Part shown: positions 12,585-47,575 of the stretch, piece by piece | Position numbering within the stretch: the first letter of the stretch is position 1 | Layout: the number at the start of each line of letters is the position of its first letter | Assembly: GCF_055900595.2 (NCBI RefSeq) | Contig: NZ_CM148325.1 | Reading direction: 5' to 3' (one strand) | DNA: 64,000 bases | Position numbers and translations under genes: made by a program | The notes under the pieces: model-generated | The model's input: the letters and a program-made list of their open reading frames with translations, nothing else | What the model was told of the DNA's origin: nothing | Database searches by the model: none

Positions 12585-12690
12585 GGATGCGGCGTGAACG
12601 CCTTATCCGTCCTACAAAATAGTGCAAATTCAATATATTGCACCATCCTCGTAGGCCTGATGAACGTAGCGTATCAGGCTATCATAAGTA
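12585..12690. repeat. REP/BIME palindromic elements
   Basis: gccggatgcggcgtgaacgccttatcc... and ...gtaggcctgatgaacgtagcgtatcaggc REP-type units between ybfP and pgm. Confidence 0.7.
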
Positions 12691-12691
12691 A

Positions 12692-12722
12692 AAAGGGCGA
12701 TCTTCCGACCGCCCTTTTTCTT
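12692..12722. terminator. Putative terminator downstream of pgm
   Basis: aaaagggcgatcttccgaccgccctttttc: GC stem flanked by an A-run and a T-run (bidirectional appearance). Confidence 0.6.
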
Positions 12723-12733
12723 ATTTAATGTGT

Positions 12734-14374
12734 TTACGCGTTTTTCAGAACTTCGCTAACAATCTCAACCGCTTCTTTCTCGATCTGCTTGCGATGTTCT
12801 TCACCGAGGAAGCTTTCGCAGTAGATTTTGTATGCGTCTTCCGTGCCTGACGGACGCGCGGCGAACCAGCCGTTGTCAGTCATCACTTTCAGACCGCCAA
12901 TAGAAGCACCGTTGCCCGGTGCCGCCGTCAGGCGCGCGGTGATCGGGTCACCTGCCAGGGTGCTGGCGCTCACCATTTCCGGAGACAGCTTAGACAGCGC
13001 CGCTTTTTGTGCGGAAGTCGCAGCTGCCTGCAAACGGTTGTAGCTCGGCGCACCAAAGCGTTTTGCCAGTTCGTTGTAGTGTTCCTGCGGGTTCTTACCG
13101 GTAACAGCAGTGATTTCCGCCGCCAGCAGACACATAATGATACCGTCTTTATCGGTGGACCACGGCGTGCCGTCGAAACGCAGAAAGGAAGCCCCTGCGC
13201 TCTCTTCGCCGCCAAAGCCGAAGCTGCCGTCGAACAGACCATCCACAAACCATTTGAAACCTACCGGTACTTCTACCAGCTTACGGCCCAAATCGTTGAC
13301 CACGCGGTCGATCATCGCAGAAGAAACCAGCGTTTTACCGACAGCAACATCTTTGCCCCACTGCGGACGATGCTGGAACAGGTAGTTGATCGCCACTGCC
13401 AGGTAATGGTTAGGATTCATCAAACCTGCCGGAGTGACGATACCGTGACGGTCATAATCCGGGTCGTTAGCAAATGCCAGATCGAACTTATCACGCAGTG
13501 CCAGCAGGCCCGCCATTGCACACTCGGAGGAACAGTCCATACGGATCGCGCCGTCTTTATCGAGGTGCATAAAGCGGAAGGTTTGATCGACCTGATCGTT
13601 AACGATGGTCAGGTTAAGGTTGTAATACTCGCCAATACGCTTCCAGTATTCGATACCGGAACCGCCCAGCGGATCAACGCCCAGCGTCAGGCCCGCTTTC
13701 TGAATCGCCGCCATATCAACGATATCGGCCAGACCTTCCACAAACGGCTGCACCAGATCCTGCTCTTTCACATGACCGGATGCCATCGCTTCGTCGAGGG
13801 AGATACGCTTCACACCTTTCAGGCCATCGGCCATCAGTGCGTTGGCCCTGTCTTCCACCACTTTGGTGACGTTGGTATCAGCCGGGCCACCATTTGGCGG
13901 ATTGTACTTGATACCACCATCTTCTGGCGGGTTATGGGACGGTGTAATCACGATACCGTCTGCCAGCGGGCCACCTTTTTTATTGTGAACCAGGATGGCA
14001 TTGGAAACGGCAGGCGTCGGAGTGAAGCCATTGTTTTCCTGCACAATAACATCTACGCCGTTCGCTGCCAGCACTTCCAGTACGGAAATGAACGCAGGCT
14101 CGGACAGGGCGTGAGTATCTTTACCCACATAGCAAGGGCCAGTGATGCCGTTTTTCGCACGTTCTTCAGCAATTGCCTGAGCGATCGCCAGAATATGCGG
14201 CTCGTTAAAGCTATGGCGCGCTGCACTGCCACGGTGACCGGAAGTACCGAATTTCACCGCGTGCTCCGCATTCCCTGCTTCTGGTTTCAGTACATAGTAT
14301 TGCGCCGTCAGTTGGGCGACGTTAATCAAATCACTCTGTTGTGCAGGTTGGCCTGCACGATTGTGGATTGCCAT
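12734..14374 (-). CDS. pgm: Phosphoglucomutase
   Basis: ORF 12734-14425; start placed at [16 protein letters not shown] (546 aa); phosphohexomutase active-site Ser region (GTSGHRGS). Confidence 0.95.
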
Positions 14375-14399
14375 TGCTTTGTCCTTTGTCTGCAACGTT

Positions 14400-14945
14400 T
14401 TAGATAGTTCCGCAAACCTTCTCAATCAATTCCGCCGGGAATTGCATCGACTGCATGATGTGTTCGATCATGCTGCATTTACGGCCGGTGTTGGTGTTGG
14501 TGATCACCCAATACGGCGTGCCTGGCACATGTTTCGGCTTGGTCTGATTACCATTTTTCAGCAGCGTTTGTTCATCTGCCGCAAAGTAAACGCGTGTACG
14601 ACCGTGCAACGATTCCGTGGCCTCGGCAAACGCCTGGGCGTCAAGAGAATATAGTGTAGACAACAGCAGCATGAAGCGATTGACCGCTCGCTTTTGCTCT
14701 GCGTATTCATCCGAAAGCAAAAGTTCACGCATTGCGCGAACCTTGTCTTTAATCGTTTTGACCGGCTTCGCTTCGACGATAGCAGGTGACGCAACGCGAA
14801 CCTCTTTCGTCACCGGAGCAGCAGGCTGTGATGCGGCGGAAAATTTCAACATACGCCGTAAAATGTCGGATGCGCTCTCGCCGATATGCTTAGTGTGGCT
14901 GGCAATATAGCTGTAGAGTTCATCATCAACTTCAATCGTTTTCAT
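14400..14945 (-). CDS. seqA: Replication initiation negative regulator SeqA
   Basis: ORF 14400-15023; start placed at [33 protein letters not shown] (181 aa). Confidence 0.93.
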
Positions 14946-15129
14946 CTTAATCCAGTGCAGTGTCTTAGCTGAATACAAGTCGCCAGGAGTATATGAATAA
15001 ATCCCGGCAGCGGATAGCGTCAAGCCTGGCTTGCAGAAAAACTCGGATTAAACCTTATTTGTTGCAGCCCTGTGGCACAATGGTCAACATAATACCCTAA
15101 CCCGACAACGCGAAAAAAAGAACTTTGCC

Positions 15130-15894
15130 ATGAAATTGAATATCCGCGCGCAAACTGCACAAAACCAGCACAATAATTCTCCCATCGTTCTTGTCCATGG
15201 TCTGTTTGGCAGCCTCGACAACCTTGGCGTACTGGCTCGCGATCTGGTAAACGATCACAATATCATCCAGGTTGATATGCGTAACCACGGTCTTTCCCCG
15301 AGAGATCCGGTGATGAGTTACCCGGAGATGGCCCAGGATCTTGTTGACACTCTGGATGCACAGCAGATCGATAAGGCAACATTTATTGGACACTCAATGG
15401 GCGGTAAAGCGGTGATGGCACTGACTGCACTGGCCCCCGATCGCATCGATAAACTGGTGGCGATTGATATTGCGCCGGTCGACTATCACGTACGCCGTCA
15501 TGATGAGATTTTCGCGGCCATCAACGCAGTCAGTGAATCAGACGCACAAACACGCCAGCAAGCAGCGGCAATAATGCGCCAGCATCTTAATGAAGAAGGG
15601 GTGATTCAGTTTCTGTTGAAATCTTTTGTTGACGGGGAGTGGCGCTTTAACGTGCCGGTATTGTGGGATCAGTATCCGCATATTGTGGGTTGGGAGAAAA
15701 TCCCGGCATGGGATCACCCTGCCCTGTTTATCCCTGGTGGCAATTCTCCGTATGTTAGCGAGCAGTATCGTGATGATTTACTGACACAATTTCCACAGGC
15801 ACGAGCGCATGTGATTGCTGGCGCGGGTCACTGGGTCCATGCTGAAAAACCGGATGCGGTATTACGCGCTATCCGTCGCTATCTCAATGATTAA
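15130..15894 (+). CDS. ybfF: Esterase YbfF (alpha/beta hydrolase)
   Basis: 254-aa ORF with a GHSMGG nucleophile elbow; conserved position next to seqA. Confidence 0.9.
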   Translation: MKLNIRAQTAQNQHNNSPIVLVHGLFGSLDNLGVLARDLVNDHNIIQVDMRNHGLSPRDPVMSYPEMAQDLVDTLDAQQIDKATFIGHSMGGKAVMALTALAPDRIDKLVAIDIAPVDYHVRRHDEIFAAINAVSESDAQTRQQAAAIMRQHLNEEGVIQFLLKSFVDGEWRFNVPVLWDQYPHIVGWEKIPAWDHPALFIPGGNSPYVSEQYRDDLLTQFPQARAHVIAGAGHWVHAEKPDAVLRAIRRYLND

Positions 15895-16033
15895 CGTAAC
15901 TGATTAAAAACCCAGCGTCCGCGTCGCTTTCCGCGCGTGGGCGTTGGCGTGACTCATCGCGCTGATGTATTATGGCGCGCTATCCATCCGGGCAGGCGCC
16001 TGGCTGATTGTTTCCCCCGAAGTCACCAAGATC

Positions 16034-16327
16034 ATGGCCAAAGAACAAACGGACCGTACGACATTAGATCTGTTCGCGCACGAGCGTCGACCGGGACGAC
16101 CGAAAACTAATCCGCTTTCGCGCGATGAACAGCTGCGTATTAATAAACGCAACCAGCTAAAACGCGACAAAGTACGTGGCCTTAAGCGTGTCGAACTGAA
16201 GCTGAACGCGGAAGCTGTCGAGGCACTGAACGAGCTGGCAGAATCGCGCAATATGAGCCGTAGCGAACTGATCGAAGAGATGTTAATGCAGCAACTGGCG
16301 GCGCTGCGTAGTCAGGGCATCGTTTAA
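16034..16327 (+). CDS. ybfE: Small DNA-binding protein YbfE (reported LexA-regulated)
   Basis: ORF 15965-16327; start placed at [14 protein letters not shown] (97 aa); ribbon-helix-helix-like C-terminus. Confidence 0.8.
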
Positions 16328-16466
16328 ATTTCCACTTTCATGTAGCACAGTGTGCAGTCCTGCTCGTTTGCTGATTCCGCAAGACTGCCTGTTCTGCTAT
16401 GATTGCCTTTATCCGTGGGCAATTTTCCACCCCCATTTCAATAAGTTTCAAGAGGTTATTTCACTC

Positions 16467-16997
16467 ATGGCTATCACTGGCATCTTTTTCGGCAGCGACA
16501 CCGGTAATACCGAAAATATCGCAAAAATGATTCAAAAACAGCTTGGTAAAGACGTTGCCGATGTCCATGACATTGCAAAAAGCAGCAAAGAAGATCTGGA
16601 AGCATATGACATTCTGCTGCTGGGCATCCCAACCTGGTATTACGGCGAAGCGCAGTGTGACTGGGATGACTTCTTCCCGACTCTCGAAGAGATTGATTTC
16701 AATGGCAAACTGGTTGCGCTGTTTGGTTGTGGCGACCAGGAAGATTACGCTGAATACTTCTGTGACGCATTGGGCACCATCCGCGACATCATTGAACCGC
16801 GCGGTGCAACCATCGTTGGTCACTGGCCAACTGCGGGCTACCATTTCGAAGCATCAAAAGGTCTGGCAGATGACGACCACTTTGTCGGTCTGGCTATCGA
16901 CGAAGACCGTCAGCCGGAACTGACCGCTGAACGTGTAGAAAAATGGGTTAAACAGATTTCTGAAGAATTGCATCTCGACGAAATTCTCAATGCCTGA
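16467..16997 (+). CDS. fldA: Flavodoxin 1
   Basis: ORF 16350-16997; start placed at [23 protein letters not shown] (176 aa) with the flavodoxin FMN-binding signature. Confidence 0.95.
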
Positions 16998-17202
16998 TGT
17001 GATGCGGCGTAGACTCATGTCTACGCCGTATTAATAGATAATGCCAATCAAAATAATTGCTACAAATTTGTAACTTTTGCTGTTGTACCTGTACAATGTC
17101 CCGGTGTTCAAGTGGCCTTGCCGTTGTAAATGTAAGCTGTGCCACGTTTTTATTAACAATATTTGCCAGGGACTTGTGGTTTTCATTTAGGCGTGGCAAT
17201 TC

Positions 17203-17221
17203 TATAATGATACGCATTATC
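17203..17221 (+). promoter_or_regulatory. Fur box in the fur/uof promoter region
   Basis: tataatgatacgcattatc closely matches the 19-bp Fur consensus GATAATGATAATCATTATC; about 65 bp upstream of fur. Confidence 0.65.
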
Positions 17222-17293
17222 TCAAGAGCAAATTCTGTCACTTCTCCTAATGAAGTGAACCGCTTAGTAACAGGACAGATTCCGCATGACTGA
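17207..17293 (+). CDS. uof: uof leader peptide (upstream ORF of fur), 28 codons
   Basis: MIRIISRANSVTSPNEVNRLVTGQIPHD read in frame; its stop TGA (17291-17293) overlaps the fur ATG (17286). Confidence 0.7.
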   Translation: MIRIISRANSVTSPNEVNRLVTGQIPHD

Positions 17294-17732
17294 TAACAAT
17301 ACCGCCCTAAAGAAAGCTGGCCTGAAAGTAACGCTTCCTCGTTTAAAAATCCTGGAAGTTCTTCAGGAGCCGGACAACCATCACGTCAGTGCGGAAGATT
17401 TATACAAACGTCTGATCGATATGGGTGAAGAAATTGGTCTGGCTACGGTATATCGCGTACTGAACCAGTTTGACGACGCTGGTATCGTCACCCGCCACAA
17501 TTTTGAAGGCGGTAAATCCGTATTTGAACTGACACAGCAACATCACCACGATCACCTGATCTGCCTCGACTGCGGCAAGGTTATCGAATTTAGTGATGAT
17601 TCCATCGAAGCGCGTCAGCGTGAAATTGCCGCAAAACATGGCATTCGCCTGACTAACCACAGTCTCTATCTTTACGGTCACTGTGCCGAAGGCGATTGCC
17701 GCGAAGATGAGCACGCGCACGAAGGCAAATAA
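17286..17732 (+). CDS. fur: Ferric uptake regulator
   Basis: 148-aa ORF MTDNNTALKKAGLKVTLPRLKILEVLQ... with a His-rich C-terminus. Confidence 0.98.
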   Translation: MTDNNTALKKAGLKVTLPRLKILEVLQEPDNHHVSAEDLYKRLIDMGEEIGLATVYRVLNQFDDAGIVTRHNFEGGKSVFELTQQHHHDHLICLDCGKVIEFSDDSIEARQREIAAKHGIRLTNHSLYLYGHCAEGDCREDEHAHEGK

Positions 17733-17747
17733 GCCAGTCTGAACGAG

Positions 17748-17776
17748 AAAAGCCAACCTGCGGGTTGGCTTTTTTA
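17748..17776 (+). terminator. Intrinsic terminator after fur
   Basis: aaagccaacc-tgcg-ggttggctt followed by ttttttat. Confidence 0.75.
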
Positions 17777-17815
17777 TGCAAGGGAAATAAGAAAAGCGAG
17801 AGTTACAGCTCTCAC

Positions 17816-18142
17816 TTATTTGTTATTACTGCGAATTTCCTGCCAGACTTTATCACAATCGGCTTTCACTGCCTGATCATTACCGGTTTGCGTTGCCTGA
17901 ATGCACTGCTGATAATCCAGCACACGGACACTTTCCTGCTCGGCAAACTGCTGATGTTGTTTCTCTTTCTTCAGCACGTTTAACACGCTCTGGCAGGCTT
18001 CAATTTTTTCTGGCGAACCTTGCGCGGTGTTGATACAGGCGCTGTAAGCTTCTTTCAGACGGCTGTCTTCCTGTGGCGCGGTGGATTGTGCACAAGCCAC
18101 CAGCCCCGATGCCATCATGGCGATGAGAATCAGTTTTTTCAT
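17816..18142 (-). CDS. chiQ: Lipoprotein ChiQ (YbfN)
   Basis: 108-aa ORF with a signal peptide and lipobox (GLVACAQ); immediately downstream of chiP on the same strand. Confidence 0.85.
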   Translation of the reverse strand: MKKLILIAMMASGLVACAQSTAPQEDSRLKEAYSACINTAQGSPEKIEACQSVLNVLKKEKQHQQFAEQESVRVLDYQQCIQATQTGNDQAVKADCDKVWQEIRSNNK

Positions 18143-18191
18143 TGCAAATTCCTCAAACGTGCGGCAGGCACAAAACCTGCCGCGTCGGGCA

Positions 18192-19994: not shown

Positions 19995-20170
19995 ATTTCT
20001 TGCCGGATGCGGCGTGAACGCCTTATCCGGCCTACAAAAGCACGCAAATTCAATATATGGCAGAGATCATGTAGGCCTGATAAGCGTAGCGCATCAGGCA
20101 ATTTAGCGTTTGAAACTGTTTCTATGTTTCTTGCCGGATGTGGCGTAAATGCCTCACCCGGCCTGGTAGA
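19995..20170. repeat. Cluster of REP/BIME elements
   Basis: Three REP-type palindromes (gccggatgcggcgtgaacgccttatccggcctac ..., gtaggcctgataagcgtagcgcatcaggc, gccggatgtggcgtaaatgcctcacccggcc) between chiP and glnS. Confidence 0.8.
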
Positions 20171-20178
20171 ACTTAAAA

Positions 20179-21843: not shown

Positions 21844-22002
21844 CGTGGATTCCTCAAAGCGTAAACAACGTATAACGGCGTATGATCTTATAAGCGGGAC
21901 AGGCTGACAACTGTTAGTTAGTGAAAATCGAAAATCTCACTGAGATTATGGGGATGATTGATGAAAAAAAAAGCGGCAGAGAAGATCTCCACCGCTTGTC
22001 AT

Positions 22003-22040
22003 TGTTGGATGCGACGCTCATGCGTCGCATCAGGCATAAA
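22003..22040. repeat. REP element
   Basis: ggatgcgacgctcatgcgtcgcatcaggc palindrome just downstream of the nagE stop. Confidence 0.6.
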
Positions 22041-22045
22041 GAAGA

Positions 22046-23992
22046 TTACTTTTTGATTTCATACAGCGGCGTTTGACCCGCCACAACATGACCCTGAGCT
22101 TTAATGATAAGGCCGCTGAAATCGTCGATATTGCTGCAAACCACCGGGCTAATCATCGAACGGGCGTTAGCGTTCAGGTAATCCAGATCCATTTCCAGAA
22201 TCGGTTGCCCTGCGCTTACTTGCGCCCCCTCTTCCACCAGACGTTTAAAGCCTTTGCCTTCCAGCGCTACGGTGTCGATACCCATATGGACGACAATCTC
22301 AGCGCCTTTTTCGGTTTCCAGGCAGAACGCGTGATTGGTGTTGAAGATTTTCACGATTGTCCCTGCGGCTGGCGATACGACGATTTTATCCGTCGGTTTC
22401 ACCGCCACACCGTCACCCACCGCTTTGCTGGCAAATGCTTCGTCAGGAACCTGATCCAGCGCCACAACATCACCGGTAATCGGCGATACCAGCTCCGCGA
22501 CAGACACCGCGTTTGGTACGGCCTGCGGTTTTGCTACAGGCACGGTAGTTGCAGGCGCAGTTTCAGCAGAGGCGGCTGCTACCGGACCACGGGCAACGAC
22601 TTTCTTCATTGCATCGCCAATGGATTCCGCTTTCGCGCCAACAATCACCTGAATAGTCTGTTTGTTCAGTTTTACCACCCCAGAAGCACCCAGACGTTTA
22701 CACATCGCATCGTTGACGCGAGCTGAGTCAGCCACCGTCAGGCGCAGACGAGTAATACAGGCGTCAATGGCTTTCAGGTTGTCAGTGCCGCCAACCGCAG
22801 CAATATAGTTGGTCGCCAGTTGATTGAGACCTTCTTCAGTGTTGCTGTTGGCTTCTTCAGTAACGATCTCGTCTTCTTTATCTTCGCGACCCGGCGTTTT
22901 CAGATTGAACATGCGGATAACCACACTGAACACCACGAAGTAGATAGCGAAGAACACAACCCCCATCACCAGCAGCATCCAGACGTTCTGGCTGGCGGCC
23001 GGCAGGTTATACATCAACGCGTAGTCGATAGCCCCCGCAGAGAAGGAGAAGCCAGCATGGATACCCAGCAGCGTTGCCACAAACAGGCTGATACCCGTCA
23101 GCAGTGCGTGCAGGAGGTACAGCAGCGGTGCAAGGAACATGAACAGGAATTCCAGCGGCTCAGTCACACCGGTCAGGAACGCAGTAACAGCAACAGAAAG
23201 CAGCATACCGCCAACCATCGGACGACGCTCTTTCGGTGCTGCGAAGTACATCGCCAGCGCCGCGCCCGGCAGACCGAACATCATAATCGGGAAGAAGCCG
23301 GACATGAACATCCCCGCGGTGCCGTCACCGGCATAGAAGCGGTTAATGTCGCCGTGGAAAACCGTACCCGCCGCGTTGGTGAATTCACCAATCTGGAACC
23401 AGGCGATGGTGTTCAGCACCTGATGCAGACCGGTTGGGATCAGCAGACGGTTGATGAAACCAAAGATACCGGAACCCAGCGCGCCCGCAGAAACGATCCA
23501 TTCGCCGCCTGCATGGATAGCGTGCTGTACCGGTGGCCAGACGTAACCAAAAATGGCCGCCAGCACCAGGCAGAAGAAGCCGGTGGCGATCGGCACAAAA
23601 CGTTTGCCGCCGAAGAAGCTCAGGAAGTCCGGCAGTTTAATATCGGACCAACGGTTATAGGCAGCACCACCGACCAGACCGGTAATGATACCCGCCAGTA
23701 CACCCATGTTAATTTCTGGGTTGATGGTCACCATCGCTTTGGTTAACACAAAGTAACCGACCGCACCCGCCAGCGCCGCCGCACCTGCGCTGTCTTTCGA
23801 CCAGCTGGATGCCACACCGATGGCGAAGATTAATGCGAGGTTATCAAAAATCGCACCGCCCGCTTGGGCAATAAACGCAACGTTAAGTAAATCTGGCTGA
23901 CCGAATCGCAGCAACAGCGCCGCCACCGGCAGCACCGCGATAGGGAGCTGTAACGCCCTACCGAGTCGCTGGAAAAAACCTAAAATATTCAT
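22046..23992 (-). CDS. nagE: PTS N-acetylglucosamine-specific EIICBA component
   Basis: 648-aa ORF: N-terminal polytopic EIIC, EIIB Cys motif region (...ITRLRLTV...) and C-terminal EIIA domain; divergent from nagB. Confidence 0.95.
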   Translation of the reverse strand: MNILGFFQRLGRALQLPIAVLPVAALLLRFGQPDLLNVAFIAQAGGAIFDNLALIFAIGVASSWSKDSAGAAALAGAVGYFVLTKAMVTINPEINMGVLAGIITGLVGGAAYNRWSDIKLPDFLSFFGGKRFVPIATGFFCLVLAAIFGYVWPPVQHAIHAGGEWIVSAGALGSGIFGFINRLLIPTGLHQVLNTIAWFQIGEFTNAAGTVFHGDINRFYAGDGTAGMFMSGFFPIMMFGLPGAALAMYFAAPKERRPMVGGMLLSVAVTAFLTGVTEPLEFLFMFLAPLLYLLHALLTGISLFVATLLGIHAGFSFSAGAIDYALMYNLPAASQNVWMLLVMGVVFFAIYFVVFSVVIRMFNLKTPGREDKEDEIVTEEANSNTEEGLNQLATNYIAAVGGTDNLKAIDACITRLRLTVADSARVNDAMCKRLGASGVVKLNKQTIQVIVGAKAESIGDAMKKVVARGPVAAASAETAPATTVPVAKPQAVPNAVSVAELVSPITGDVVALDQVPDEAFASKAVGDGVAVKPTDKIVVSPAAGTIVKIFNTNHAFCLETEKGAEIVVHMGIDTVALEGKGFKRLVEEGAQVSAGQPILEMDLDYLNANARSMISPVVCSNIDDFSGLIIKAQGHVVAGQTPLYEIKK

Positions 23993-25125: not shown

Positions 25126-25143
25126 TTATTATCCCTGCCCTGA

Positions 25144-26334
<1,191 letters not shown>

Positions 26335-28399: not shown

Positions 28400-28515
28400 G
28401 ACAAACGCCAAACTGCCTGATGCGCTACGCTTATCAGGCCTACGCAGCTCCTGCAATATATTGAATTTTCATGCTTTTGTAGGCAGGATAAGGCGTTCAC
28501 GCCGCATCCGGCATG
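28400..28515. repeat. REP/BIME elements
   Basis: gcctgatgcgctacgcttatcaggcctac ... gtaggcaggataaggcgttcacgccgcatccggc between nagD and asnB. Confidence 0.8.
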
Positions 28516-30465: not shown

Positions 30466-30903
30466 TTATTGAGCTGCTTGTTGATTCTGATATGCAGTAA
30501 GGAAATGTTCCGGGTTTGCCACATCACTGTTTGACAACTCATCACTGTAGGCCACCGACCAGGTCGCCTGCTCATCCGGAATATGCAGGCTGCCATTCCC
30601 CTCTTTCAGGCGTAATAACTCAAAAGATTTGCCCTTAATTACGGCGGTATAGGATTTTTCACCTTCCTGTAATGCTTTCACTTTACAGCGAAAAATCTGG
30701 CCATCGATGTCATTATCAACATGCGATACCTGAATGAGGGCTTCATTAGAGGCTTTCGGCCCTATCCGCATCATCCACACCACAGCGCCTTCCTGCCCAC
30801 GATAGCCAAAAACATATTTACCGATTTCCGGTTTGACCGTATCGGCAAACGCAGATTGCATAAGTAATAACGCACCCATCAGCGCCGTCATAAAACGCAG
30901 CAT
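30466..30903 (-). CDS. Hypothetical exported protein (signal peptide plus about 125-aa mature domain), function unknown
   Basis: 145-codon ORF with a GAGGGA Shine-Dalgarno 5 nt upstream of the ATG; N-terminus MLRFMTALMGALLLMQSAFA-DT looks like a Sec signal peptide with an AXA cleavage site. No family recognised by eye. Confidence 0.6.
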   Translation of the reverse strand: MLRFMTALMGALLLMQSAFADTVKPEIGKYVFGYRGQEGAVVWMMRIGPKASNEALIQVSHVDNDIDGQIFRCKVKALQEGEKSYTAVIKGKSFELLRLKEGNGSLHIPDEQATWSVAYSDELSNSDVANPEHFLTAYQNQQAAQ

Positions 30904-31166
30904 AGTATTCCCTCAATAAATCGCCTGAAGTGGTAGCAGAGATGCAGGCGTAGCGATCCCTGCCCTGTCCTGTTGCAACGGGTCAGTATTTCATAGATTA
31001 ATTTCCTACCACTATTGTTGAATTCCGAATTTCATCCTGTATGACAAAAGAATGGCTGTAGGGTGGGGAAAAAACACAAAGTAAACAATAATTGACGAAT
31101 ATAGCGCCACGCTGTTCGCAACCTAACCAAACAGTCACTTTCGAGCAATTTTCCTTGAAAAAGAGG

Positions 31167-31941: not shown

Positions 31942-31950
31942 CATTAAAAA

Positions 31951-31974
31951 AGCTCGCTTCGGCGAGCTTTTTGC
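31951..31974 (+). terminator. Intrinsic terminator of the tRNA operon
   Basis: agctcgc-ttcg-gcgagct hairpin followed by ttttt. Confidence 0.8.
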
Positions 31975-32009
31975 TTTTCTGCGTATATTCAATGTCGAAT
32001 GCGATGTTG

Positions 32010-32090
32010 ACACGTCTTATTCTTCAAAGTCGGATGCGACGCTGATGCGTCTTATCCGACCTACAGTTGGCATGCATCCGGCAATGTTGT
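32010..32090. repeat. REP elements
   Basis: cggatgcgacgctgatgcgtcttatccgacctac and related palindromic units between the tRNA operon and ubiF. Confidence 0.7.
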
Positions 32091-37465: not shown

Positions 37466-37489
37466 AACCGAAACTGGATAGATAACTAC

Positions 37490-39028
37490 ATGGCTTTTGC
37501 CTCATTAATTGAACGCCAGCGCATTCGCCTGCTGCTGGCGTTATTATTCGGTGCCTGCGGAACGCTGGCCTTCTCTCCTTACGACGTCTGGCCTGCGGCG
37601 ATTATTTCGCTGATGGGGCTTCAGGCGCTGACCTTTAACCGCCGTCCACTCCAGTCTGCCGCTATTGGCTTTTGCTGGGGATTTGGCCTGTTTGGCAGCG
37701 GTATTAACTGGGTCTATGTCAGCATCGCGACCTTTGGCGGAATGCCTGGCCCAGTTAACATCTTCCTGGTGGTGCTGCTGGCAGCGTATTTGTCGCTGTA
37801 TACCGGACTGTTTGCTGGCGTGCTGTCGCGTCTGTGGCCGAAAACCACCTGGCTACGCGTGGCGATTGCCGCCCCTGCTCTCTGGCAAGTGACCGAGTTT
37901 CTGCGCGGTTGGGTGCTGACTGGCTTCCCGTGGTTGCAGTTCGGCTATAGCCAGATTGACGGTCCGTTAAAAGGACTGGCACCGATAATGGGCGTGGAAG
38001 CCATTAACTTCCTGCTGATGATGGTAAGCGGCCTGCTGGCACTGGCGTTGGTCAAACGCAACTGGCGTCCGCTGGTGGTGGCCGTCGTGCTGTTTGCCCT
38101 TCCCTTCCCGCTACGTTACATCCAGTGGTTTACCCCGCAACCGGAGAAAACCATTCAGGTATCGATGGTTCAGGGCGACATTCCGCAATCGCTGAAGTGG
38201 GATGAAGGCCAGCTTCTCAATACGCTGAAGATTTACTACAACGCAACGGCACCGCTGATGGGCAAGTCATCGCTGATTATCTGGCCGGAGTCGGCGATAA
38301 CCGACCTGGAAATTAATCAGCAGCCGTTCCTCAAAGCACTGGACGGTGAGTTGCGTGATAAAGGTAGCTCGCTGGTCACCGGGATTGTCGACGCGCGTCT
38401 CAATAAGCAGAACCGCTACGATACCTACAACACCATCATCACGCTGGGTAAAGGTGCACCGTATAGCTACGAATCAGCCGATCGCTATAACAAAAACCAT
38501 CTGGTGCCGTTTGGCGAGTTTGTCCCGCTGGAGTCGATTCTGCGTCCGTTAGCACCGTTCTTTGACCTGCCGATGTCGTCATTCAGCCGTGGACCATATA
38601 TCCAACCACCGCTGTCGGTAAATGGTATTGAGCTTACTGCGGCTATTTGCTACGAGATCATTCTCGGCGAGCAAGTGCGCGATAACTTCCGCCCGGATAC
38701 CGACTATCTGCTGACTATCTCCAACGATGCGTGGTTTGGTAAGTCTATTGGCCCATGGCAGCACTTTCAGATGGCGCGAATGCGTGCGCTGGAGCTGGCG
38801 CGCCCGCTGCTGCGTAGCACCAATAATGGCATCACGGCGGTGATTGGTCCGCAGGGTGAGATTCAGGCGATGATCCCGCAATTCACCCGCGAGGTGTTGA
38901 CCACTAATGTGACGCCGACTACCGGACTCACACCGTACGCACGTACCGGCAACTGGCCGCTGTGGGTGCTGACGGCACTGTTTGGTTTTGCCGCTGTGCT
39001 GATGAGACTGCGAGCACGTCAACGTTAA
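37490..39028 (+). CDS. lnt: Apolipoprotein N-acyltransferase
   Basis: 512-aa ORF with N-terminal TM helices and a C-N hydrolase (nitrilase) domain. Confidence 0.95.
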
Positions 39029-39158
39029 TGTGAATGATGCACTGGCCAGCAAAATCGCATCATTTTTGCAGGCCAGATAAACTGTTCACACCACATCCGG
39101 TATCAACAAAACGTACTTTCTCATTGAGCTGTGGGGCGTGATTATCATGCCCCTTTTT

Positions 39159-41096
39159 TTACGGTTCAGGGATACAAGCCACATCGCCATATTGGGGATG
39201 CCGAATAATTGCCTGCGGATCAAGCGAGCGCGTCCTGTCCATTTGGATTAACCCGTTCTTCGCCATAACAAATATCTTTCTACCATCCGCTGAAAAACGA
39301 AGATGATTAACGTAGCTGGCAGGATAAACGCCAATAATCTGCCCGGCATTAATATTGAGCAGGATGACATAACCTTGCAGGCCATATGACACCAACGCTA
39401 AATACTGACCGTCCGGGCTAATACCCTCAACAGAATAAACGCTCCTGCTACACCATTGCGTCATAATGCTGGCTTGTTGATCCCCTGTGCTTATACCTGA
39501 AATCCCCTGACTATCGGCAAAAATAACCTCACCATTTTTTGGTCGGAATCCCATCGCAGAAACGACACCACGCGCATCACCTGCGGGAAAATCTTCTTTC
39601 TGATGCGTGATGGTATTGATCCGCACGATGTTACCTCTGCCTGCTCCCGGAACCAGTAATGTTTTTTCATCCGGGGAAAGTGCCATAACCCAGGCGCCTG
39701 GTTTACCGCTCGTCCCCGTCCCGTCGTATTTCTCCAGTGGGATATCCGCCACATGCTGATAAGTCACCAGATCAATCGCTGACACACTATTACTGGTGCG
39801 ATTCATCACCCAGGCTTTTGTGCCATCACGCGAGAGGATAAGGCTGTCAGGATGGGCGCCGGTGGTAATCGACTGAATAATCTCCCCCGTCGCCACGTTA
39901 ATGACCGATACTGCATTCGCTTCAAATGAAGTCGCATACAGCAACTTTTCATCGGGGCTTAACACCAGCGATCTGACGCCCTGATCTTTACAGCCACCAC
40001 AATGTTTGACTGACTTTTCTTTCGCTATGGGCGCTGTAAAGGTATGCAGGATTTTCTTTTGTCCGAGGTCGAAAACAACAATACTGTTCGTGTTTTCAAT
40101 TGCGGCATAAAACGTATTACCATCCCGACTGATCGCCATATCATGGATATCGGCAATCTCAGCGAGCAAATCACCACTGGCCTGTTCACGACTTACCGGA
40201 GCGGGTAATGTTTCCCTGAGGGCGTTGCGTTCCTCCGCTAACTGCTGCTTTTTATGCCGTCGCTCTTGTTCAATCTCCTGCGGATAAAACTCTTCACGCA
40301 GGCTTTGCCTGACCTGCAAAACTGATTCATCAATCTGCTGCTGCACAAGCCAGATAGCCCCGGTCAGTAGAAGACTACCCGCAACAATAATCCCGCCTTC
40401 CGTAACAAGTCGGTTTTGCCCAGATAAACGCGCACTCAGCCAACCCAACGCGCCCCCCGCAATCAGGCCGCCAATGTGGCAAGCGTTATCTATTCCTGTT
40501 TGCCGGGTACCATACAACAGTGTCAGCGCCACCATACCCAACAGAGAAAATACTCGCCGCTGGTTTTTATGGTGTGTACCCGCACCTGAAGAAAGCTGTG
40601 TTGCTATCGCAGCGCCAGCTATTCCCATAATTGCCCCGGATGCCCCAACGCTGATGACTATCTGCTCACTTTCGCGTAACGCATAACAGGCGCTGATGAG
40701 CCCACCAAAGATGCCGGAGAATAACCAGATAATCAGGAGTCGCCATTTCCCCAGTATCCGTTCCGCCACTGTCCCCACCACCAGGAGTGCAAACATATTC
40801 ATCAGCAAATGGGAAAAACTACTGTGCAGAAAAACACTGCTCAATAAGCGCCAGGGTTCACCCGACAACGTGAGAGAGGCAACGTTAGCGCCGAGATGGA
40901 TGAGTGCGGATTGATCGACTTCTTCATAACTCATCCATTGTGCGAGGTAACAAAATATCCCAACACATAGCGCAAAAAGGATCAGGGTTATTGCGGGTAA
41001 TTGAACATTTAACGGCTTAACCGAAGATGCAGACATAAGGTGATTCTTCCTTGAAAAGACAGGTAAAAAAGCATTTTTCCCGTGTGCAGTTATCAT
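39159..41096 (-). CDS. Rhomboid-family intramembrane serine protease fused to a C-terminal beta-propeller-like repeat domain (uncharacterized)
   Basis: 645-codon ORF. Rhomboid hallmarks read directly: WRLLSSVFLHSSFSHLLMNMF (H-x4-H-x3-N), GASGAIMG (candidate catalytic Ser, ORF residue 153), HIGGLIAG (candidate catalytic His, residue 207). A further hydrophobic helix (GGIIVAGSLLLTGAIWLV) and a charged linker follow. The C-terminal ~340 aa carry reiterated S/T-x-D-G ... N-x-V-S-V-I units. An alternative start at Met21 (41036) is possible. Confidence 0.8.
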   Translation of the reverse strand: MITAHGKNAFLPVFSRKNHLMSASSVKPLNVQLPAITLILFALCVGIFCYLAQWMSYEEVDQSALIHLGANVASLTLSGEPWRLLSSVFLHSSFSHLLMNMFALLVVGTVAERILGKWRLLIIWLFSGIFGGLISACYALRESEQIVISVGASGAIMGIAGAAIATQLSSGAGTHHKNQRRVFSLLGMVALTLLYGTRQTGIDNACHIGGLIAGGALGWLSARLSGQNRLVTEGGIIVAGSLLLTGAIWLVQQQIDESVLQVRQSLREEFYPQEIEQERRHKKQQLAEERNALRETLPAPVSREQASGDLLAEIADIHDMAISRDGNTFYAAIENTNSIVVFDLGQKKILHTFTAPIAKEKSVKHCGGCKDQGVRSLVLSPDEKLLYATSFEANAVSVINVATGEIIQSITTGAHPDSLILSRDGTKAWVMNRTSNSVSAIDLVTYQHVADIPLEKYDGTGTSGKPGAWVMALSPDEKTLLVPGAGRGNIVRINTITHQKEDFPAGDARGVVSAMGFRPKNGEVIFADSQGISGISTGDQQASIMTQWCSRSVYSVEGISPDGQYLALVSYGLQGYVILLNINAGQIIGVYPASYVNHLRFSADGRKIFVMAKNGLIQMDRTRSLDPQAIIRHPQYGDVACIPEP

Positions 41097-41491
41097 CCCG
41101 GCAAACGTCCCATACCGAAAAGTTAACTCTGTCCGAAATATGACTTTTTCAGCCTGAAATTACAATCGTAATTAATTCATCCCTAAGTATTTTTTGGCAT
41201 GTAAGTTGCTTTATTTACTGTGTAAGCAATGAAATCAGCCGCAACGCAACCGGGTTGCACCAACACAAATCAGCGGTAGCACCAAAAAGGTGCGGTTTAA
41301 GAATTTTGCTTCGGAATGGTGCGGCGCATCTCGCAAAAACAAACAATAAAACATCAATATCTTTACATTTAGCCAAACTAAATGTTACCTAACAAACACA
41401 ACACTGCACAATAAAGTTGCAGATGATAACAACACAAACACTCACAACGGGTATCCATGCGTTCTTAACGCAGAAGATAAAGGAGTTGGAT

Positions 41492-42400: not shown

Positions 42401-42556
42401 TTACAAGAACCAGGGGCGGAAATTCCAGCCCTCTCGATTGTTACGTAGCACGGACAGACTATACGCCTGATGGTCGTTCCCCATCGGGCCTGAAAACCGC
42501 AATACGCTGGGTAACAATCTTCGAGGGTAGCAGTTAACGCTGCTACCCTCTTTTTT
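42395..42556 (+). ncRNA. sroC: SroC-like sRNA derived from the gltI-gltJ spacer (3' end at terminator); 5' end approximate
   Basis: The gltI-gltJ intergenic region ends in a strong hairpin gagggtagcag-ttaac-gctgctaccctc followed by tttttt (42523-42556). Position matches the SroC sRNA described for the gltIJKL mRNA in E. coli and Salmonella. Confidence 0.55.
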
Positions 42557-42569
42557 CTGGAGTAGATTT

Positions 42570-43310
42570 ATGTCTATAGACTGGAACTGGGGTATTTTTT
42601 TACAACAAGCCCCGTTCGGCAACACCACCTATCTTGGTTGGATCTGGAGTGGTTTTCAGGTGACGATCGCTTTGTCGATCTGCGCCTGGATTATCGCTTT
42701 CCTTGTCGGTTCATTTTTCGGCATTTTACGTACCGTTCCAAACCGTTTTCTCTCCGGTCTGGGTACGTTGTATGTCGAACTGTTCCGCAACGTGCCGTTG
42801 ATTGTGCAATTCTTTACCTGGTATCTGGTTATCCCTGAACTGTTGCCGGAAAAAATCGGCATGTGGTTTAAGGCAGAACTAGACCCAAATATTCAGTTTT
42901 TCCTCTCCTCCATGCTCTGTCTGGGACTGTTTACTGCAGCTCGTGTTTGCGAACAAGTACGCGCCGCGATTCAGTCGTTGCCGCGTGGGCAAAAGAATGC
43001 CGCGCTGGCAATGGGTCTGACGCTACCGCAGGCTTACCGCTACGTACTGTTGCCTAACGCTTATCGCGTTATCGTCCCGCCAATGACCTCTGAGATGATG
43101 AACCTGGTAAAAAACTCCGCCATCGCCTCGACCATCGGTCTGGTGGATATGGCGGCGCAGGCCGGTAAATTGCTCGATTACTCGGCCCACGCCTGGGAGT
43201 CATTTACCGCCATTACGCTGGCGTATGTGTTGATTAACGCTTTTATCATGCTGGTGATGACGCTGGTTGAACGTAAAGTTCGCCTGCCCGGCAACATGGG
43301 GGGCAAATAA
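42570..43310 (+). CDS. gltJ: Glutamate/aspartate ABC transporter permease
   Basis: 246-aa polytopic ORF with the ABC permease EAA-like region. Confidence 0.93.
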
Positions 43311-43983
43311 TGTACGAGTTTGACTGGAGTTCCATTGTTCCTTCCCTGCCATATCTGCTCGACGGGCTGGTGATCACCCTGAAAATCACCATCACGGCGG
43401 TGGTCATTGGTATTTTGTGGGGTACGATGCTGGCAGTAATGCGCTTGTCCAGCTTTGCGCCGATTGCCTGGTTTGCCAAAGCCTACGTTAACGTATTCCG
43501 CTCGATTCCTTTAGTCATGGTTTTGCTGTGGTTTTACCTGATTGTGCCGGGTTTTCTGCAAAACGTGCTGGGATTATCGCCAAAAAATGATATCCGTTTA
43601 ATTTCGGCGATGGTGGCGTTTTCGATGTTTGAAGCGGCCTACTATTCAGAGATTATCCGTGCCGGTATTCAAAGTATTTCCCGTGGGCAGTCGAGCGCCG
43701 CGCTGGCGTTGGGGATGACTCACTGGCAGTCGATGAAACTGATTATTCTGCCGCAGGCGTTCCGCGCTATGGTGCCGCTGCTGCTCACTCAGGGCATCGT
43801 ACTGTTCCAGGATACCTCACTGGTGTATGTGTTATCTCTGGCCGATTTCTTCCGTACCGCCTCAACCATTGGTGAGCGTGATGGTACACAGGTCGAAATG
43901 ATTCTGTTTGCCGGGTTTGTTTATTTCGTTATTAGCCTTAGCGCATCGTTGTTGGTCAGCTACTTGAAAAGAAGGACAGCATA

Positions 43984-43984
<1 letters not shown>
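43310..43984 (+). CDS. gltK: Glutamate/aspartate ABC transporter permease
   Basis: 224-aa polytopic ORF; start overlaps the gltJ stop. Confidence 0.93.
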
Positions 43985-44709
<725 letters not shown>

Positions 44710-44826
44710 TCACTCTGGCGCGCATACCCAAGTGCGCGCCATCTCACGCTTTCTCGTTTCGGCCCTCGTATCTGTTACATCCTGGCGTTACCCTTGTCGC
44801 AAAGAAGCACACAACAAGGAGCAACA

Positions 44827-45762
44827 ATGGCACTGCCAATTCTGTTAGATTGCGATCCAGGTCATGACGACGCTATCGCAATAGTTCTCGCCCTCGCCTC
44901 ACCAGAGCTTGATGTCAAAGCAATTACGTCTTCCGCCGGAAACCAGACACCAGAAAAAACCTTACGCAATGTTCTGCGTATGCTGACCTTGCTTAATCGC
45001 ACCGATATTCCGGTAGCAGGCGGCGCGGTAAAACCATTAATGCGTGATTTGATTATCGCGGACAATGTGCACGGCGAAAGCGGTCTCGACGGCCCTGCAT
45101 TACCGGAACCGACGTTCGCACCGCAAAACTGTACGGCGGTGGAGTTGATGGCGAAAACGCTGCGTGAAAGTGCGGAACCTGTCACGATTGTTTCTACCGG
45201 ACCGCAAACTAACGTTGCCTTGCTGCTCAATAGCCACCCGGAACTGCATAGCAAAATCGCCCGAATCGTGATTATGGGCGGCGCAATGGGGATTGGTAAC
45301 TGGACGCCAGCCGCCGAGTTTAATATTTATGTTGACCCGGAAGCGGCAGAAATTGTCTTCCAGTCAGGGATCCCGGTGGTGATGGCCGGTCTGGATGTTA
45401 CTCACAAAGCGCAAATTTACGTTGAGGACACCGAGCGTTTCCGCGCGATTGGCAACCCTGTTTCAACCATTGTTGCCGAACTGCTGGATTTCTTCCTCGA
45501 ATATCATAAAGACGAAAAATGGGGCTTTGTTGGCGCACCGCTGCATGACCCATGCACCATCGCCTGGCTGTTGAAACCAGAGTTGTTTACCACTGTTGAG
45601 CGCTGGGTTGGCGTGGAAACACAAGGGAAATATACCCAGGGTATGACGGTTGTTGATTATTATTATCTGACCGGCAATAAACCGAATGCTACTGTAATGG
45701 TCGATGTTGATCGTCAGGGCTTTGTTGATTTACTGGCTGATCGTCTGAAATTTTACGCTTAA
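44827..45762 (+). CDS. rihA: Pyrimidine-specific ribonucleoside hydrolase RihA
   Basis: ORF 44794-45762; start placed at [19 protein letters not shown] (the DxDxxxDD nucleoside hydrolase motif), 311 aa. Confidence 0.93.
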
Positions 45763-45845
45763 CACACGTCATTGATTAAGATCACCACGCGTTACCTGGG
45801 TGGTCTTAATCTGTTTATCTCTTTTTCCTTTAAGATATAAATGCA

Positions 45846-47516
45846 ATGGATAATGCAGAACTCGCCATTGGTATCGATCTCGGTACTACCAATAGTTTAA
45901 TTGCCGTCTGGAAAGACGGTGCCGCGCAATTAATTCCAAATAAGTTCGGTGAATATTTAACACCATCCATAATTAGCATGGATGAAAATAATCATATTTT
46001 AGTCGGAAAACCCGCTGTATCACGGCGCACTTCGCATCCGGATAAAACGGCAGCGTTATTTAAACGTGCAATGGGCAGTAATACCAACTGGCGGTTAGGC
46101 AGCGACACATTTAACGCGCCTGAACTGTCCTCTTTGGTATTACGCTCATTAAAAGAAGATGCCGAAGAATTTCTGCAACGTCCGATTAAAGATGTGGTGA
46201 TCTCCGTTCCGGCTTATTTCAGCGATGAACAACGCAAGCATACCCGTTTAGCAGCGGAGTTAGCCGGGTTAAATGCGGTACGCTTAATTAATGAACCCAC
46301 AGCAGCTGCGATGGCATATGGCCTGCATACGCAACAAAATACCCGCTCGCTGGTTTTTGATCTCGGTGGCGGCACGTTTGACGTCACGGTGCTCGAATAC
46401 GCCACGCCGGTGATTGAAGTTCACGCCTCCGCTGGCGACAACTTTCTTGGCGGCGAAGATTTTACTCATATGCTGGTGGATGAAGTTTTAAAACGCGCCG
46501 CAGTGGCTAAAAACATGCTCAACGAAAGTGAGCTGGCAGCCCTGTACACCAGCGTGGAAGCGGCAAAATGCAGCAATCAATTACCGCTGCAAATTAGCTG
46601 GCAGTATCAGGAAGAAACGCGTGAGTGCGAATTTTACGAGAACGAACTGGAAGATTTGTGGTTGCCGCTGCTCAATCGCTTGCGAGTGCCGATTGAACAG
46701 GCGTTGCGCGATGCACGTCTGAAGCCAAGTCAAATCGACAGTCTGGTGCTGGTTGGCGGCGCATCACAAATGCCGCTGGTGCAGCGAATCGCCGTGCGTC
46801 TGTTTGGCAAATTACCGTATCAAAGTTACGACCCGAGTACTATTGTCGCGCTGGGCGCAGCGATCCAGGCCGCCTGCCGCTTACGCAGCGAAGACATTGA
46901 AGAAGTGATCCTCACCGATATTTGCCCCTACTCCTTAGGTGTTGAAGTTAACCGCCAGGGCGTTTCCGGCATTTTCTCACCGATTATTGAACGAAACACC
47001 ACTGTACCGGTGTCGCGTGTAGAAACTTACTCGACCATGCACCCGGAACAGGATTCAATTACGGTTAACGTCTATCAGGGAGAAAACCACAAAGTTAAAA
47101 ATAACATTCTGGTAGAATCCTTCGATGTGCCGTTGAAGAAAACCGGGGCTTATCAGTCGATTGATATTCGCTTTAGTTATGATATCAACGGGTTGCTTGA
47201 AGTTGACGTGCTTCTGGAAGACGGCAGCGTTAAGTCCAGAGTCATTAACCACAGTCCTGTAACATTGAGCGCACAGCAGATTGAAGAGAGTCGGACGCGG
47301 TTATCCGCATTGAAAATTTATCCGCGCGATATGCTCATCAACCGCACCTTTAAGGCCAAACTGGAAGAGTTGTGGGCGCGGGCGCTGGGTGACGAGCGAG
47401 AAGAGATCGGCCGGGTGATCACCGATTTTGATGCGGCGTTGCAGTCAAACGATATGGCCCGCGTCGATGAAGTTCGGCGACGGGCGAGCGATTATTTGGC
47501 TATTGAGATCCCTTAA
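45846..47516 (+). CDS. hscC: Hsp70-family chaperone HscC (Hsc62)
   Basis: 556-aa ORF with the Hsp70 N-terminal ATPase signature (IGIDLGTTNS, DLGGGTFD), shorter than DnaK. Confidence 0.93.
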   Translation: MDNAELAIGIDLGTTNSLIAVWKDGAAQLIPNKFGEYLTPSIISMDENNHILVGKPAVSRRTSHPDKTAALFKRAMGSNTNWRLGSDTFNAPELSSLVLRSLKEDAEEFLQRPIKDVVISVPAYFSDEQRKHTRLAAELAGLNAVRLINEPTAAAMAYGLHTQQNTRSLVFDLGGGTFDVTVLEYATPVIEVHASAGDNFLGGEDFTHMLVDEVLKRAAVAKNMLNESELAALYTSVEAAKCSNQLPLQISWQYQEETRECEFYENELEDLWLPLLNRLRVPIEQALRDARLKPSQIDSLVLVGGASQMPLVQRIAVRLFGKLPYQSYDPSTIVALGAAIQAACRLRSEDIEEVILTDICPYSLGVEVNRQGVSGIFSPIIERNTTVPVSRVETYSTMHPEQDSITVNVYQGENHKVKNNILVESFDVPLKKTGAYQSIDIRFSYDINGLLEVDVLLEDGSVKSRVINHSPVTLSAQQIEESRTRLSALKIYPRDMLINRTFKAKLEELWARALGDEREEIGRVITDFDAALQSNDMARVDEVRRRASDYLAIEIP

Positions 47517-47575
47517 ACACGGCTGCCGGATGCGGCATAAACGCTGCATTCGGCATCGGCGCAAAAAACACATCC

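Follow-up and report, generated by a model that had tools for sequence, protein, structure and literature searches.

REP and BIME-1 palindromes in the kdpA-mrdA region of an Escherichia coli chromosome

REP and BIME elements have been catalogued in Escherichia coli for about forty years and their bias towards the 3' ends of genes is textbook knowledge. The E. coli work on these repeats is that of Stern, Higgins, Gilson and Bachellier. The y, z1 and z2 types of palindromic unit, the definition of BIME-1 and the requirement for a GTAG tetranucleotide and a stem mismatch are reviewed in PMC3333891. According to the rules given there, a unit should be a substrate of the TnpA_REP/RAYT transposase only if it keeps the GTAG as well as the mismatch in its stem (PMC3333891). 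In BIME-1, also known as RIB/RIP elements, the IHF site lies in the L linker, in the region of the AAATTCAATATATTGCA core (PMC3333891). BIME-2 elements are tandem y/z2 arrangements exemplified by REP325/naRNA4, and it is for BIME-2 that gyrase shows its preference (PMC6379681). Transcription is reported for about 80% of REP elements (PMC4550694) and PMC12306157 describes an effect of REPs on translation when they lie within 15 nt of a stop codon.

The stretch of DNA analysed here, referred to as the window, comprises 64,000 nt of the E. coli chromosome from kdpA to mrdA, 10.4% of which is intergenic or non-coding. We estimate at about 95% the probability that its palindromes belong to the E. 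coli REP family as resident copies, organised as three canonical BIME-1s (y and z1 units tail-to-tail around an L linker), five single REPs decayed to differing degrees and three short remnants. The length of 30-37 nt, the imperfect palindrome, the extragenic position and the high copy number are shared with the described y, z1 and z2 units (PMC3333891). There is no essential difference from the family, but decay is seen in four of the five single units, which have lost the tetranucleotide and in two cases also the stem mismatch, and in one unit a z2 core is combined with y arms.

The units were identified by several scans. Consensus searches allowing at most three mismatches matched y at 12582-12615, 20002-20035 and 28479-28512 and z1 at 12651-12679, 20071-20099 and 28415-28443, while none of the 100 dinucleotide shuffles used as control contained a y or z1 match. 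The z1 consensus is supported by the BIME-1 definition in PMC3333891. For y and z2, the consensus was checked against that of Rfam naRNA4. A second, bit-parallel edit-distance scan calibrated on shuffles added 20130-20166, 22004-22040, 32028-32064, 47523-47557 and 39068-39102. Edit distances to the consensus were 0-1 for the y units of the BIME-1s, 0-4 for z1 and 7-10 for the single units; the shuffles contained no y match within distance 8, and their z2 matches at distance 10 numbered 0.05 per shuffle. A covariance model (CM) built from the 11 REP units of the window detected no REP in the 64 kb beyond these training units, the best non-members having E=0.18 and E=0.74. Three other candidates were rejected as being at chance level: the fldA terminator hairpin at 16995-17027 (distance 11; CM 10.6 bits, E=2), a REP-like palindrome in the coding end of ybfF at 15846-15881 (CM E=0.74) and the interval 42462-42495 inside sroC (CM E=0.18).

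An earlier note on this DNA had placed REP-type palindromes at seven sites and proposed a REP consensus scan as the check. The consensus, covariance-model and Rfam scans agree with it at all seven, within a few bases; every flagged site belongs to the REP family and the shuffles yielded none. The degenerate unit at 39068-39102, downstream of lnt, was absent from its list. That the flagged palindromes are genuine REP/BIME copies is thus confirmed, an observation that is correct but ordinary and already known. Orthologous REPs occupy the same loci in K-12, whose RefSeq record carries no REP repeat features. The corresponding K-12 coordinates are 681,682-681,716 (hscC/djlC), 696,307-696,343 (ubiF/glnX), 699,424-699,523 (umpH/asnB), 705,896-705,938 (nagE/glnS), 707,771-707,935 (glnS/chiP) and 715,263-715,362 (pgm/ybfP).

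The three complete BIME-1s, at 12581-12680, 20001-20100 and 28414-28513, each consist of a y REP, a 35-nt L linker and a z1 REP. The pgm-ybfP element comprises y at 12581-12615 (plus strand, one mismatch to the consensus), the linker at 12616-12650 with a conserved AAATTCAATATATTGCA core and z1 at 12651-12680 (minus strand), which is four edits from the consensus and perfect in K-12; in all, this BIME-1 carries five substitutions absent in K-12. In the glnS 3' untranslated region, y (20001-20035, plus) and z1 (20071-20100, minus) are exact consensus copies and the linker core (20036-20070) has TT changed to TG. The nagD-asnB element is inverted relative to the other two, with an exact z1 at 28414-28443 (plus), the linker at 28444-28478 and y at 28479-28513 (minus, one mismatch). 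At all three loci y and z1 lie on opposite strands as one pair, with their CTAC ends facing the linker and no tandem array. This is the architecture described for BIME-1, single rather than tandem, with the 35-nt linker conserved in all three as AAAAGCAYG.AAATTCAATATAT(T/G)GCA. Two of the three also share a conserved outer flank, and the glnS element differs from the described type by an extra y-like REP 30 nt away. With the 100-bp BIME-1 as query, 5425 of 5426 E. coli genomes each give at least 40 places. The L cores are one base off the IHF consensus WATCAANNNNTTR, and the glnS copy differs by an additional change; by analogy, the three linkers would be expected to bind IHF on DNA.

The linkers are also what Rfam detects under another name. 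The model RF02751 (ES036, CssrF) aligns end to end with all three L linkers, scoring 45.5 bits at pgm-ybfP and 41.1 bits (minus strand) at nagD-asnB, above the gathering threshold of 37.6 bits, and 24.6 bits at glnS, below it. The model RF02564 (naRNA4, CssrE), made of the Y and Z2 hairpins of REP325, aligns through its Y hairpin to the y REPs. Both are filed as sRNA genes and an HU-dependent role has been reported for REP325-derived RNAs (PMC4550694), observations that would fit linkers being dedicated sRNA genes and y REPs being naRNA4-like genes for nucleoid-associated RNA. We consider this very unlikely, however, given that the ES036 model corresponds exactly to the L linker plus the first z1 bases, repeated dozens of times per genome. 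All naRNA4 matches remain below gathering because only one of the two hairpins is present, the second being absent in the naRNA4 register, and single-hairpin RNAs are reported to be inactive (PMC4550694). A consensus scan found no promoter-like sites inside the REP/BIME elements, and any such RNA is more simply explained as a processed 3'-UTR fragment of the repeat. The papers retrieved by a literature search on ES036/CssrF were all unrelated. The window matches are, in our reading, repeat copies in 3' regions.

The five single REPs are more heterogeneous. Near glnS, a third, diverged y-like REP (20130-20166, plus) lies 16 nt past the glnS stop codon; it is at edit distance 7, scores 45.1 bits with the CM and 28.3 bits with the Rfam naRNA4 Y hairpin, and has CTGG in place of CTAC. 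A z2-like REP (22004-22040, minus) with a perfect 10-bp stem separates the nagE stop from the nagE terminator (21997-21971). The PGAP annotation calls a CDS over this REP, a spurious small ORF explained by the repeat. The REP at 32028-32064 (plus), flanked by the tRNA operon terminator and the ubiF stop, combines a z2-type core with y-type arms and has kept its CTAC (-21.7 kcal/mol, z -6.9). It is preceded by a decayed tandem copy (31993-32027, plus), which agrees with the REP at 22 of its first 27 nt, a match equalled by only 0.24% of random 56-mers from the window. On its other side, the 10-nt 5'-arm tail GCATCCGGCA (32073-32082, minus), read from the sequence and without a fold alone, may be the remnant of an inverted partner, for which it is weak evidence. 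The degenerate y-like unit between the lnt stop and the lnt terminator (39133-39153) occupies 39068-39102 (minus), at edit distance 8 where no shuffle came closer than 9; its 42.7 bits with the CM are those of a member of the training set, and it folds weakly, no better than shuffles (z -0.8). Finally, the convergent hscC/djlC spacer contains a y-variant REP (47523-47557, plus) with a K-12 orthologue, whose perfect 13-bp stem (-23.9 kcal/mol) begins 7 nt past the hscC stop.

Overall, 10 of the 11 units fold as stable imperfect hairpins, better than shuffles (z -2.5 to -6.9). An internal stem mismatch is found in nine units and is missing in those of nagE and hscC. The CTAC/GTAG at the foot of the palindrome is present in seven and lost in 20130-20166, 22004-22040, 39068-39102 (CTGC) and 47523-47557. 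The z2-type core GATGCGACGC...GCGTC occurs in two single REPs, 22004-22040 and 32028-32064. The earlier note had labelled such units Y-type; they are z2-like instead, this core belonging to the Z2 hairpin of the curated Rfam naRNA4 consensus. In contrast with BIME-2, neither has an intact y partner, and neither short-linker pairing nor a tandem array was found in the window. There is thus no BIME-2 in it and a strong gyrase site is not expected.

None of the 11 units or of the remnants overlaps an annotated gene, in line with the intergenic position claimed in the earlier note, and its statement that they sit at 3' ends also holds, each REP-bearing spacer bordering at least one stop codon. REPs occur in seven of the 27 spacers with a 3' end, namely four of 19 tandem and three of eight convergent ones, and in none of the nine divergent spacers, an absence that is not significant in the window alone (Fisher p=0.11). 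Being G+C-rich hairpins located where genes end, the palindromes could also be intrinsic (Rho-independent) terminators of the upstream genes rather than members of a repeat family, and in the hscC/djlC spacer the REP is the sole hairpin. This possibility is nevertheless highly improbable, as none of the palindromes is followed by a T-run, separate canonical terminators adjoin the REPs of pgm, glnS, nagE, the tRNA operon/ubiF and lnt, and near-identical sequences recur at unrelated loci, at least 40 per genome. For glnS, nagE, ubiF and lnt the terminator is distal, so that the REP lies between the stop codon and the intrinsic terminator. The pgm BIME-1 is located beyond a strong terminator (-23.9 kcal/mol); transcription from pgm therefore probably seldom reaches it, which rules it out as a stabiliser of the pgm mRNA.

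The potE-pgm spacer combines a REP remnant, an insertion sequence and a pseudogene. The remnant (11038-11080, plus), identified by BLAST and alignment, consists of about 30 nt of the flank that precedes y and a truncated, near-palindromic y 5' arm (TGCCGCATCCGGCA). BLAST of 11037-11079 against the flank of the K-12 pgm-ybfP BIME-1 gives 86% identity (E=2.9e-7), and the remnant is identical at 33 of 43 positions to the pgm-side flank (12552-12594) and at 29 of 43 to the nagD-side flank. The fragment that the earlier note had seen at about 11060-11080 is hence a genuine BIME-1 remnant, longer than described. An IS200 copy (about 10303-11008, minus; annotation and Rfam STnc490 match), which is context and not REP, has inserted past the potE stop codon but before the potE terminator; its end lies about 30 nt left of the remnant, beyond the terminator, and K-12 and O157:H7 have empty sites. 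Published surveys name members of the IS3, IS110, IS4, IS256 and IS5 families as REP-targeting; IS200 does not belong to these elements and stands at 1 of 25 copies (PMC1525189). As with IS1397, IS621 and ISKpn1, an insertion sequence is found near a REP remnant here too, but it is an IS200 and it stands outside the REP. Insertion of IS200 in a REP was rejected, the site being the potE stop-terminator interval and the K-12 remnant being IS-free. That all the palindromes are debris of this IS200, i.e. IS200/IS605-type subterminal hairpins or miniature derivatives, has practically no likelihood: the fragment does lie close to the IS end and PMC3333891 relates the IS200 family transposase to the REP-associated transposase and likens REPs to subterminal hairpins, but the REP CM has no match in 10303-11008 even at E<=10, the fragment is IS-free in K-12 and in a contaminant contig (L004), all other REPs are conserved in K-12 and the surveys of REP targeting have IS200 at 1 of 25 copies.

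The ybfI pseudogene (11079-11222, plus; annotation, alignment and 91% BLAST identity to K-12 kdpE) is a 145-bp copy of the kdpE 3' end (5939-6084), and its homology to kdpE begins exactly at the edge of the REP remnant. The earlier suggestion that the IS or the kdpE-remnant junction formed in or next to a REP thus fails for IS200, the fragment being at the same place in IS-free K-12, and stands for the kdpE remnant. A 1.7-kb segment (ybfI, a DUF2625 gene and ybfP) starts with the truncated BIME-1 and ends with the complete one, in the same orientation, and is nested in 17-bp direct repeats, which two terminator half-sites form. Only about one third of complete E. coli genomes have this segment and about two thirds lack it. 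A contig scan with a ybfI-specific 24-mer returned only the L004 contig, which is E. coli-like and assigned to a Collinsella MAG. Outside E. coli, no DUF2625 homologue exceeds 57% identity, and those of Citrobacter and Kosakonia have unrelated neighbourhoods and no kdpE. The spacer could be the footprint of REP-associated gene gain or loss, the kdpE-like junction having arisen by TnpA_REP-type cleavage or strand exchange at the y REP and not by ordinary illegitimate recombination, a speculative scenario to which we attach rather low odds.

By analogy with the described family, the REPs would have spread as single-stranded hairpins through a REP-associated tyrosine transposase encoded elsewhere in the genome, the RAYT (TnpA_REP) gene being outside the window, and would persist where they are harmless, just past stop codons. 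The four of 11 units without CTAC/GTAG, among which those of nagE and hscC also lack the stem mismatch, should no longer be transposase substrates. Where a REP is transcribed in a 3' untranslated region (glnS, nagE, ubiF, lnt), its stem-loop should impede 3'-to-5' exonucleases and shield the message upstream of it. The hscC and nagE REPs follow their stop codons at 7 and 14 nt, a distance short enough to make them candidates for the reported REP-dependent reduction of translation. We infer these roles (mRNA stabilisation, ribosome stalling and IHF binding) for the window copies by transfer from other loci.

Beyond good annotation the value of these repeats is limited. They account for small spurious ORF calls and for Rfam ES036 "sRNA" matches, and they flag spacers prone to indels between strains. 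The polymorphism of the potE-pgm segment is a tidy case of variable DNA bordered by BIMEs and, if the scenario of cleavage or strand exchange at the y REP were true, it would illustrate how REPs can mediate the capture of foreign DNA in nature.

The palindromes that the earlier note had read as REP/BIME elements do belong to the REP family. A consensus scan found y REPs at 12582-12615, 20002-20035 and 28479-28512, with at most one mismatch to the y-type sequence already noted, and the shorter z1 REP (GCCTGATGCGCTACGCTTATCAGGCCTAC) at 12651-12679, 20071-20099 and 28415-28443; no y or z1 consensus match was obtained in 100 dinucleotide-preserving shuffles. Scanning by edit distance to the y, z1 and z2 consensus sequences, with shuffles as calibration, added the units at 20130-20166, 22004-22040, 32028-32064 and 47523-47557 as well as one absent from the earlier list, downstream of lnt at 39068-39102. 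A covariance model trained on these 11 units and run unfiltered on both strands detected no further REP copy in the window, its best non-members lying inside sroC (E=0.18) and inside the end of ybfF (E=0.74). No REPs were found within 1-11,000 and 48,000-64,000. Stable hairpins well beyond shuffled controls were predicted for 10 of the 11 units, the exception being the lnt unit. The density in the window is 11 units per 64 kb; the K-12 total is 584 REP units per 4.64 Mb, i.e. about one per 8 kb (PMC3333891). The elements are ordinary and already known, their family having been described decades ago. The earlier interpretation was correct in substance, apart from one type label, the lnt unit and the reading of IS200.

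Three REP types, y, z1 and z2, are distinguished in E. coli, characterized by a stem mismatch and by GTAG conserved at the foot (Ton-Hoang et al., PMC3333891). A single y-z1 pair flanking a long, conserved L linker, often with an IHF site, constitutes a BIME-1, and BIME-2 are tandem arrays of y/z2 pairs with short linkers (PMC3333891). The elements at 12581-12680, 20001-20100 and 28414-28513 are BIME-1 because they correspond to this definition, the last being inverted relative to the other two. No BIME-2 was found in the window. The units with the core GATGCGACGC...GCGTC (22004-22040 and 32028-32064), previously labelled Y-type, are z2-like instead. In the alignment, CTAC is kept in seven of the 11 units and lost in those at 20130, 22004, 39068 and 47523; the nagE and hscC units have perfect stems without mismatch. 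Since binding and cleavage by the REP-associated transposase need both GTAG and the stem mismatch (PMC3333891), the four units without CTAC appear to be immobile relics. Two remnants are also present in the ubiF spacer, a decayed tandem REP copy (31993-32027, 22/27 identical to the neighbouring REP) and a 10-nt inverted REP arm (32073-32082).

Rfam has no family named REP, and two of its families, naRNA4 and ES036/CssrF, are based on these repeats. The naRNA4 model comprises the Y and Z2 hairpins of REP325; its Y hairpin aligns to the y units, and its printed consensus agrees with the y and z2 sequences used here. ES036 aligns end to end with the 35-nt y-z1 spacers of all three composite elements (45.5, 41.1 and 24.6 bits) and effectively models the BIME-1 L linker. 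The ES036 matches at 12616-12658, 20036-20078 and 28436-28478 are repeat copies, not evidence for a dedicated sRNA gene. Of 5426 complete E. coli genomes, 5425 match the 100-bp composite element at 40 or more positions each.

Every unit is intergenic, as had been claimed, though intergenic sequence makes up 10.4% of the window. Among spacers of at least 40 bp, REPs occupy 4 of 19 tandem, 3 of 8 convergent and none of 9 divergent ones, a contrast with divergent spacers that has the known direction and is not significant in the window sample alone (p=0.11). Locus layouts were deduced from a terminator scan and folds. The stop codon is followed by a y-like REP, the BIME-1 and a terminator (19981-19959) at glnS, by a REP and a terminator at nagE (21997-21971) and lnt (39133-39153), and at ubiF by REPs and a two-way terminator (31947-31972) that also ends the tRNA operon. 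At these four loci the REPs therefore lie within the 3' untranslated region. The order is reversed at pgm: the BIME-1 is preceded by a strong terminator (-23.9 kcal/mol) and stands ahead of ybfP. At nagD, the BIME-1 follows the stop codon after 51 nt containing only a weak hairpin, with no T-run terminator ahead of it, and the REP is the only hairpin of the 59-bp convergent hscC/djlC spacer.

In the classical view of Higgins and Newbury, REP hairpins in 3' untranslated regions reportedly shield upstream mRNA from 3' exonucleases; those located here would protect the upstream mRNA in this way. The stem starts 7 nt from the stop codon at hscC, 14 nt at nagE and 16 nt at glnS, making the first two candidates for the REP-dependent reduction of translation published for distances within 15 nt (PMC12306157). 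The L linkers of the BIME-1s share the core AAATTCAATATATTGCA and are predicted IHF sites. Gyrase preference concerns BIME-2 (PMC6379681) and is therefore not expected at the window REPs.

The window corresponds to the K-12 region 660 to 728 kb in reverse direction. In the annotation of strain E200086, the gene order is kdpA-kdpE, speFL-speF-potE, IS200, ybfI, a DUF2625 gene, ybfP, pgm, seqA, ybfF, ybfE, fldA, fur, chiQ, chiP, glnS, nagE, nagBACD, asnB, the metT operon (seven tRNAs), ubiF, miaB to lnt, a rhomboid gene, gltIJKL, rihA, hscC, djlC ... mrdA. Several E. coli chromosomes are 100% identical to the 3-kb piece 10500-13500. Despite such identity with E200086 over this piece, the window does not derive from E200086 itself, since djlB is intact here (50396-51823) and interrupted by an IS3-family element in E200086 (comparison sequence L003, 2921-5771). 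K-12 lacks a 426-bp stretch (30555-30980) between asnB and the metT tRNA operon, which covers the greater part of a hypothetical minus-strand ORF of 145 aa (30466-30903) and has no REP at its edges. Two small PGAP CDSs of E200086 look spurious: a 'hypothetical protein' over the nagE terminator and REP (window 21921-22076) and a 43-aa 'TonB-dependent receptor' over the speFL leader (window 6248-6379).

IS200 (about 10303-11008) separates the potE stop codon from the terminator hairpin of that gene (11012-11037). The hairpin at the end of the IS itself (10306-10324), with a plus-strand T-run after it, would be the first terminator-like structure that potE transcripts encounter, and Rfam STnc490 matches the IS at 10874-10997 (minus strand). 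It had been suggested that the IS or the kdpE-remnant junction formed within or next to a REP. Insertion of IS200 into a REP is ruled out by its position and by K-12, which lacks the IS at this site yet carries tatgccgcatccggcag at equal distance from the potE terminator; reported REP-targeting insertion sequences do not include IS200 (PMC1525189). The fragment is longer than a 13-mer: 11038-11080 matches the flank and first y REP bases of the BIME-1 elements (in BLAST, the pgm-side flank of K-12 with E=2.9e-7; 33/43 and 29/43 identities to BIME-1 flanks) and is a truncated BIME-1. The second half of the suggestion is supported, as the homology of ybfI to the kdpE 3' end starts precisely where this remnant ends on the right (11079-11222 against kdpE 5939-6084, about 90% identity). 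The last 145 bp of kdpE occur twice, as direct repeats flanking the speFL-speF-potE operon, the second copy being the ybfI pseudogene.

Of 5385 complete E. coli genomes with a match, 1839 contain the ybfI region, the remainder matching the query through kdpE itself only. In O157:H7, potE and pgm are separated by 56 bp and have a single terminator in common; this spacer aligns as the left potE-terminator half fused to the right pgm-terminator half (comparison sequence L005, 13348-13405). The 1.7-kb segment at about 11009-12685, containing ybfI, the DUF2625 gene and ybfP, lies between 17-bp direct repeats, AAGTAAAAA(A)GGGCGAT, made of the two terminator half-sites. At its ends lie the truncated BIME-1 and the complete pgm-ybfP BIME-1, in the same orientation. 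A scan of genome collections for its origin returned a single match, a contig assigned to a Collinsella MAG (L004, JAIJJM010000630.1, 1899 bp). This contig is about 95% identical to E. coli potE-ybfI-ybfP-pgm of K-12 type, lacking IS200, and probably represents contamination of that bin by E. coli. Outside E. coli, the DUF2625 gene lacks close relatives, and its homologues in Citrobacter and Kosakonia have no kdpE neighbour. At a second variable locus, 39013-41246 (a y-like REP, a terminator and a rhomboid-family gene) is absent from K-12, which has instead 167 bp that include a distinct, oppositely oriented y-like REP. A K-12 IS5 is inserted near window position 41392. The remaining REP loci are conserved in K-12. 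The variable REP loci agree with a published link between BIMEs and strain-specific segments (PMC1525189).
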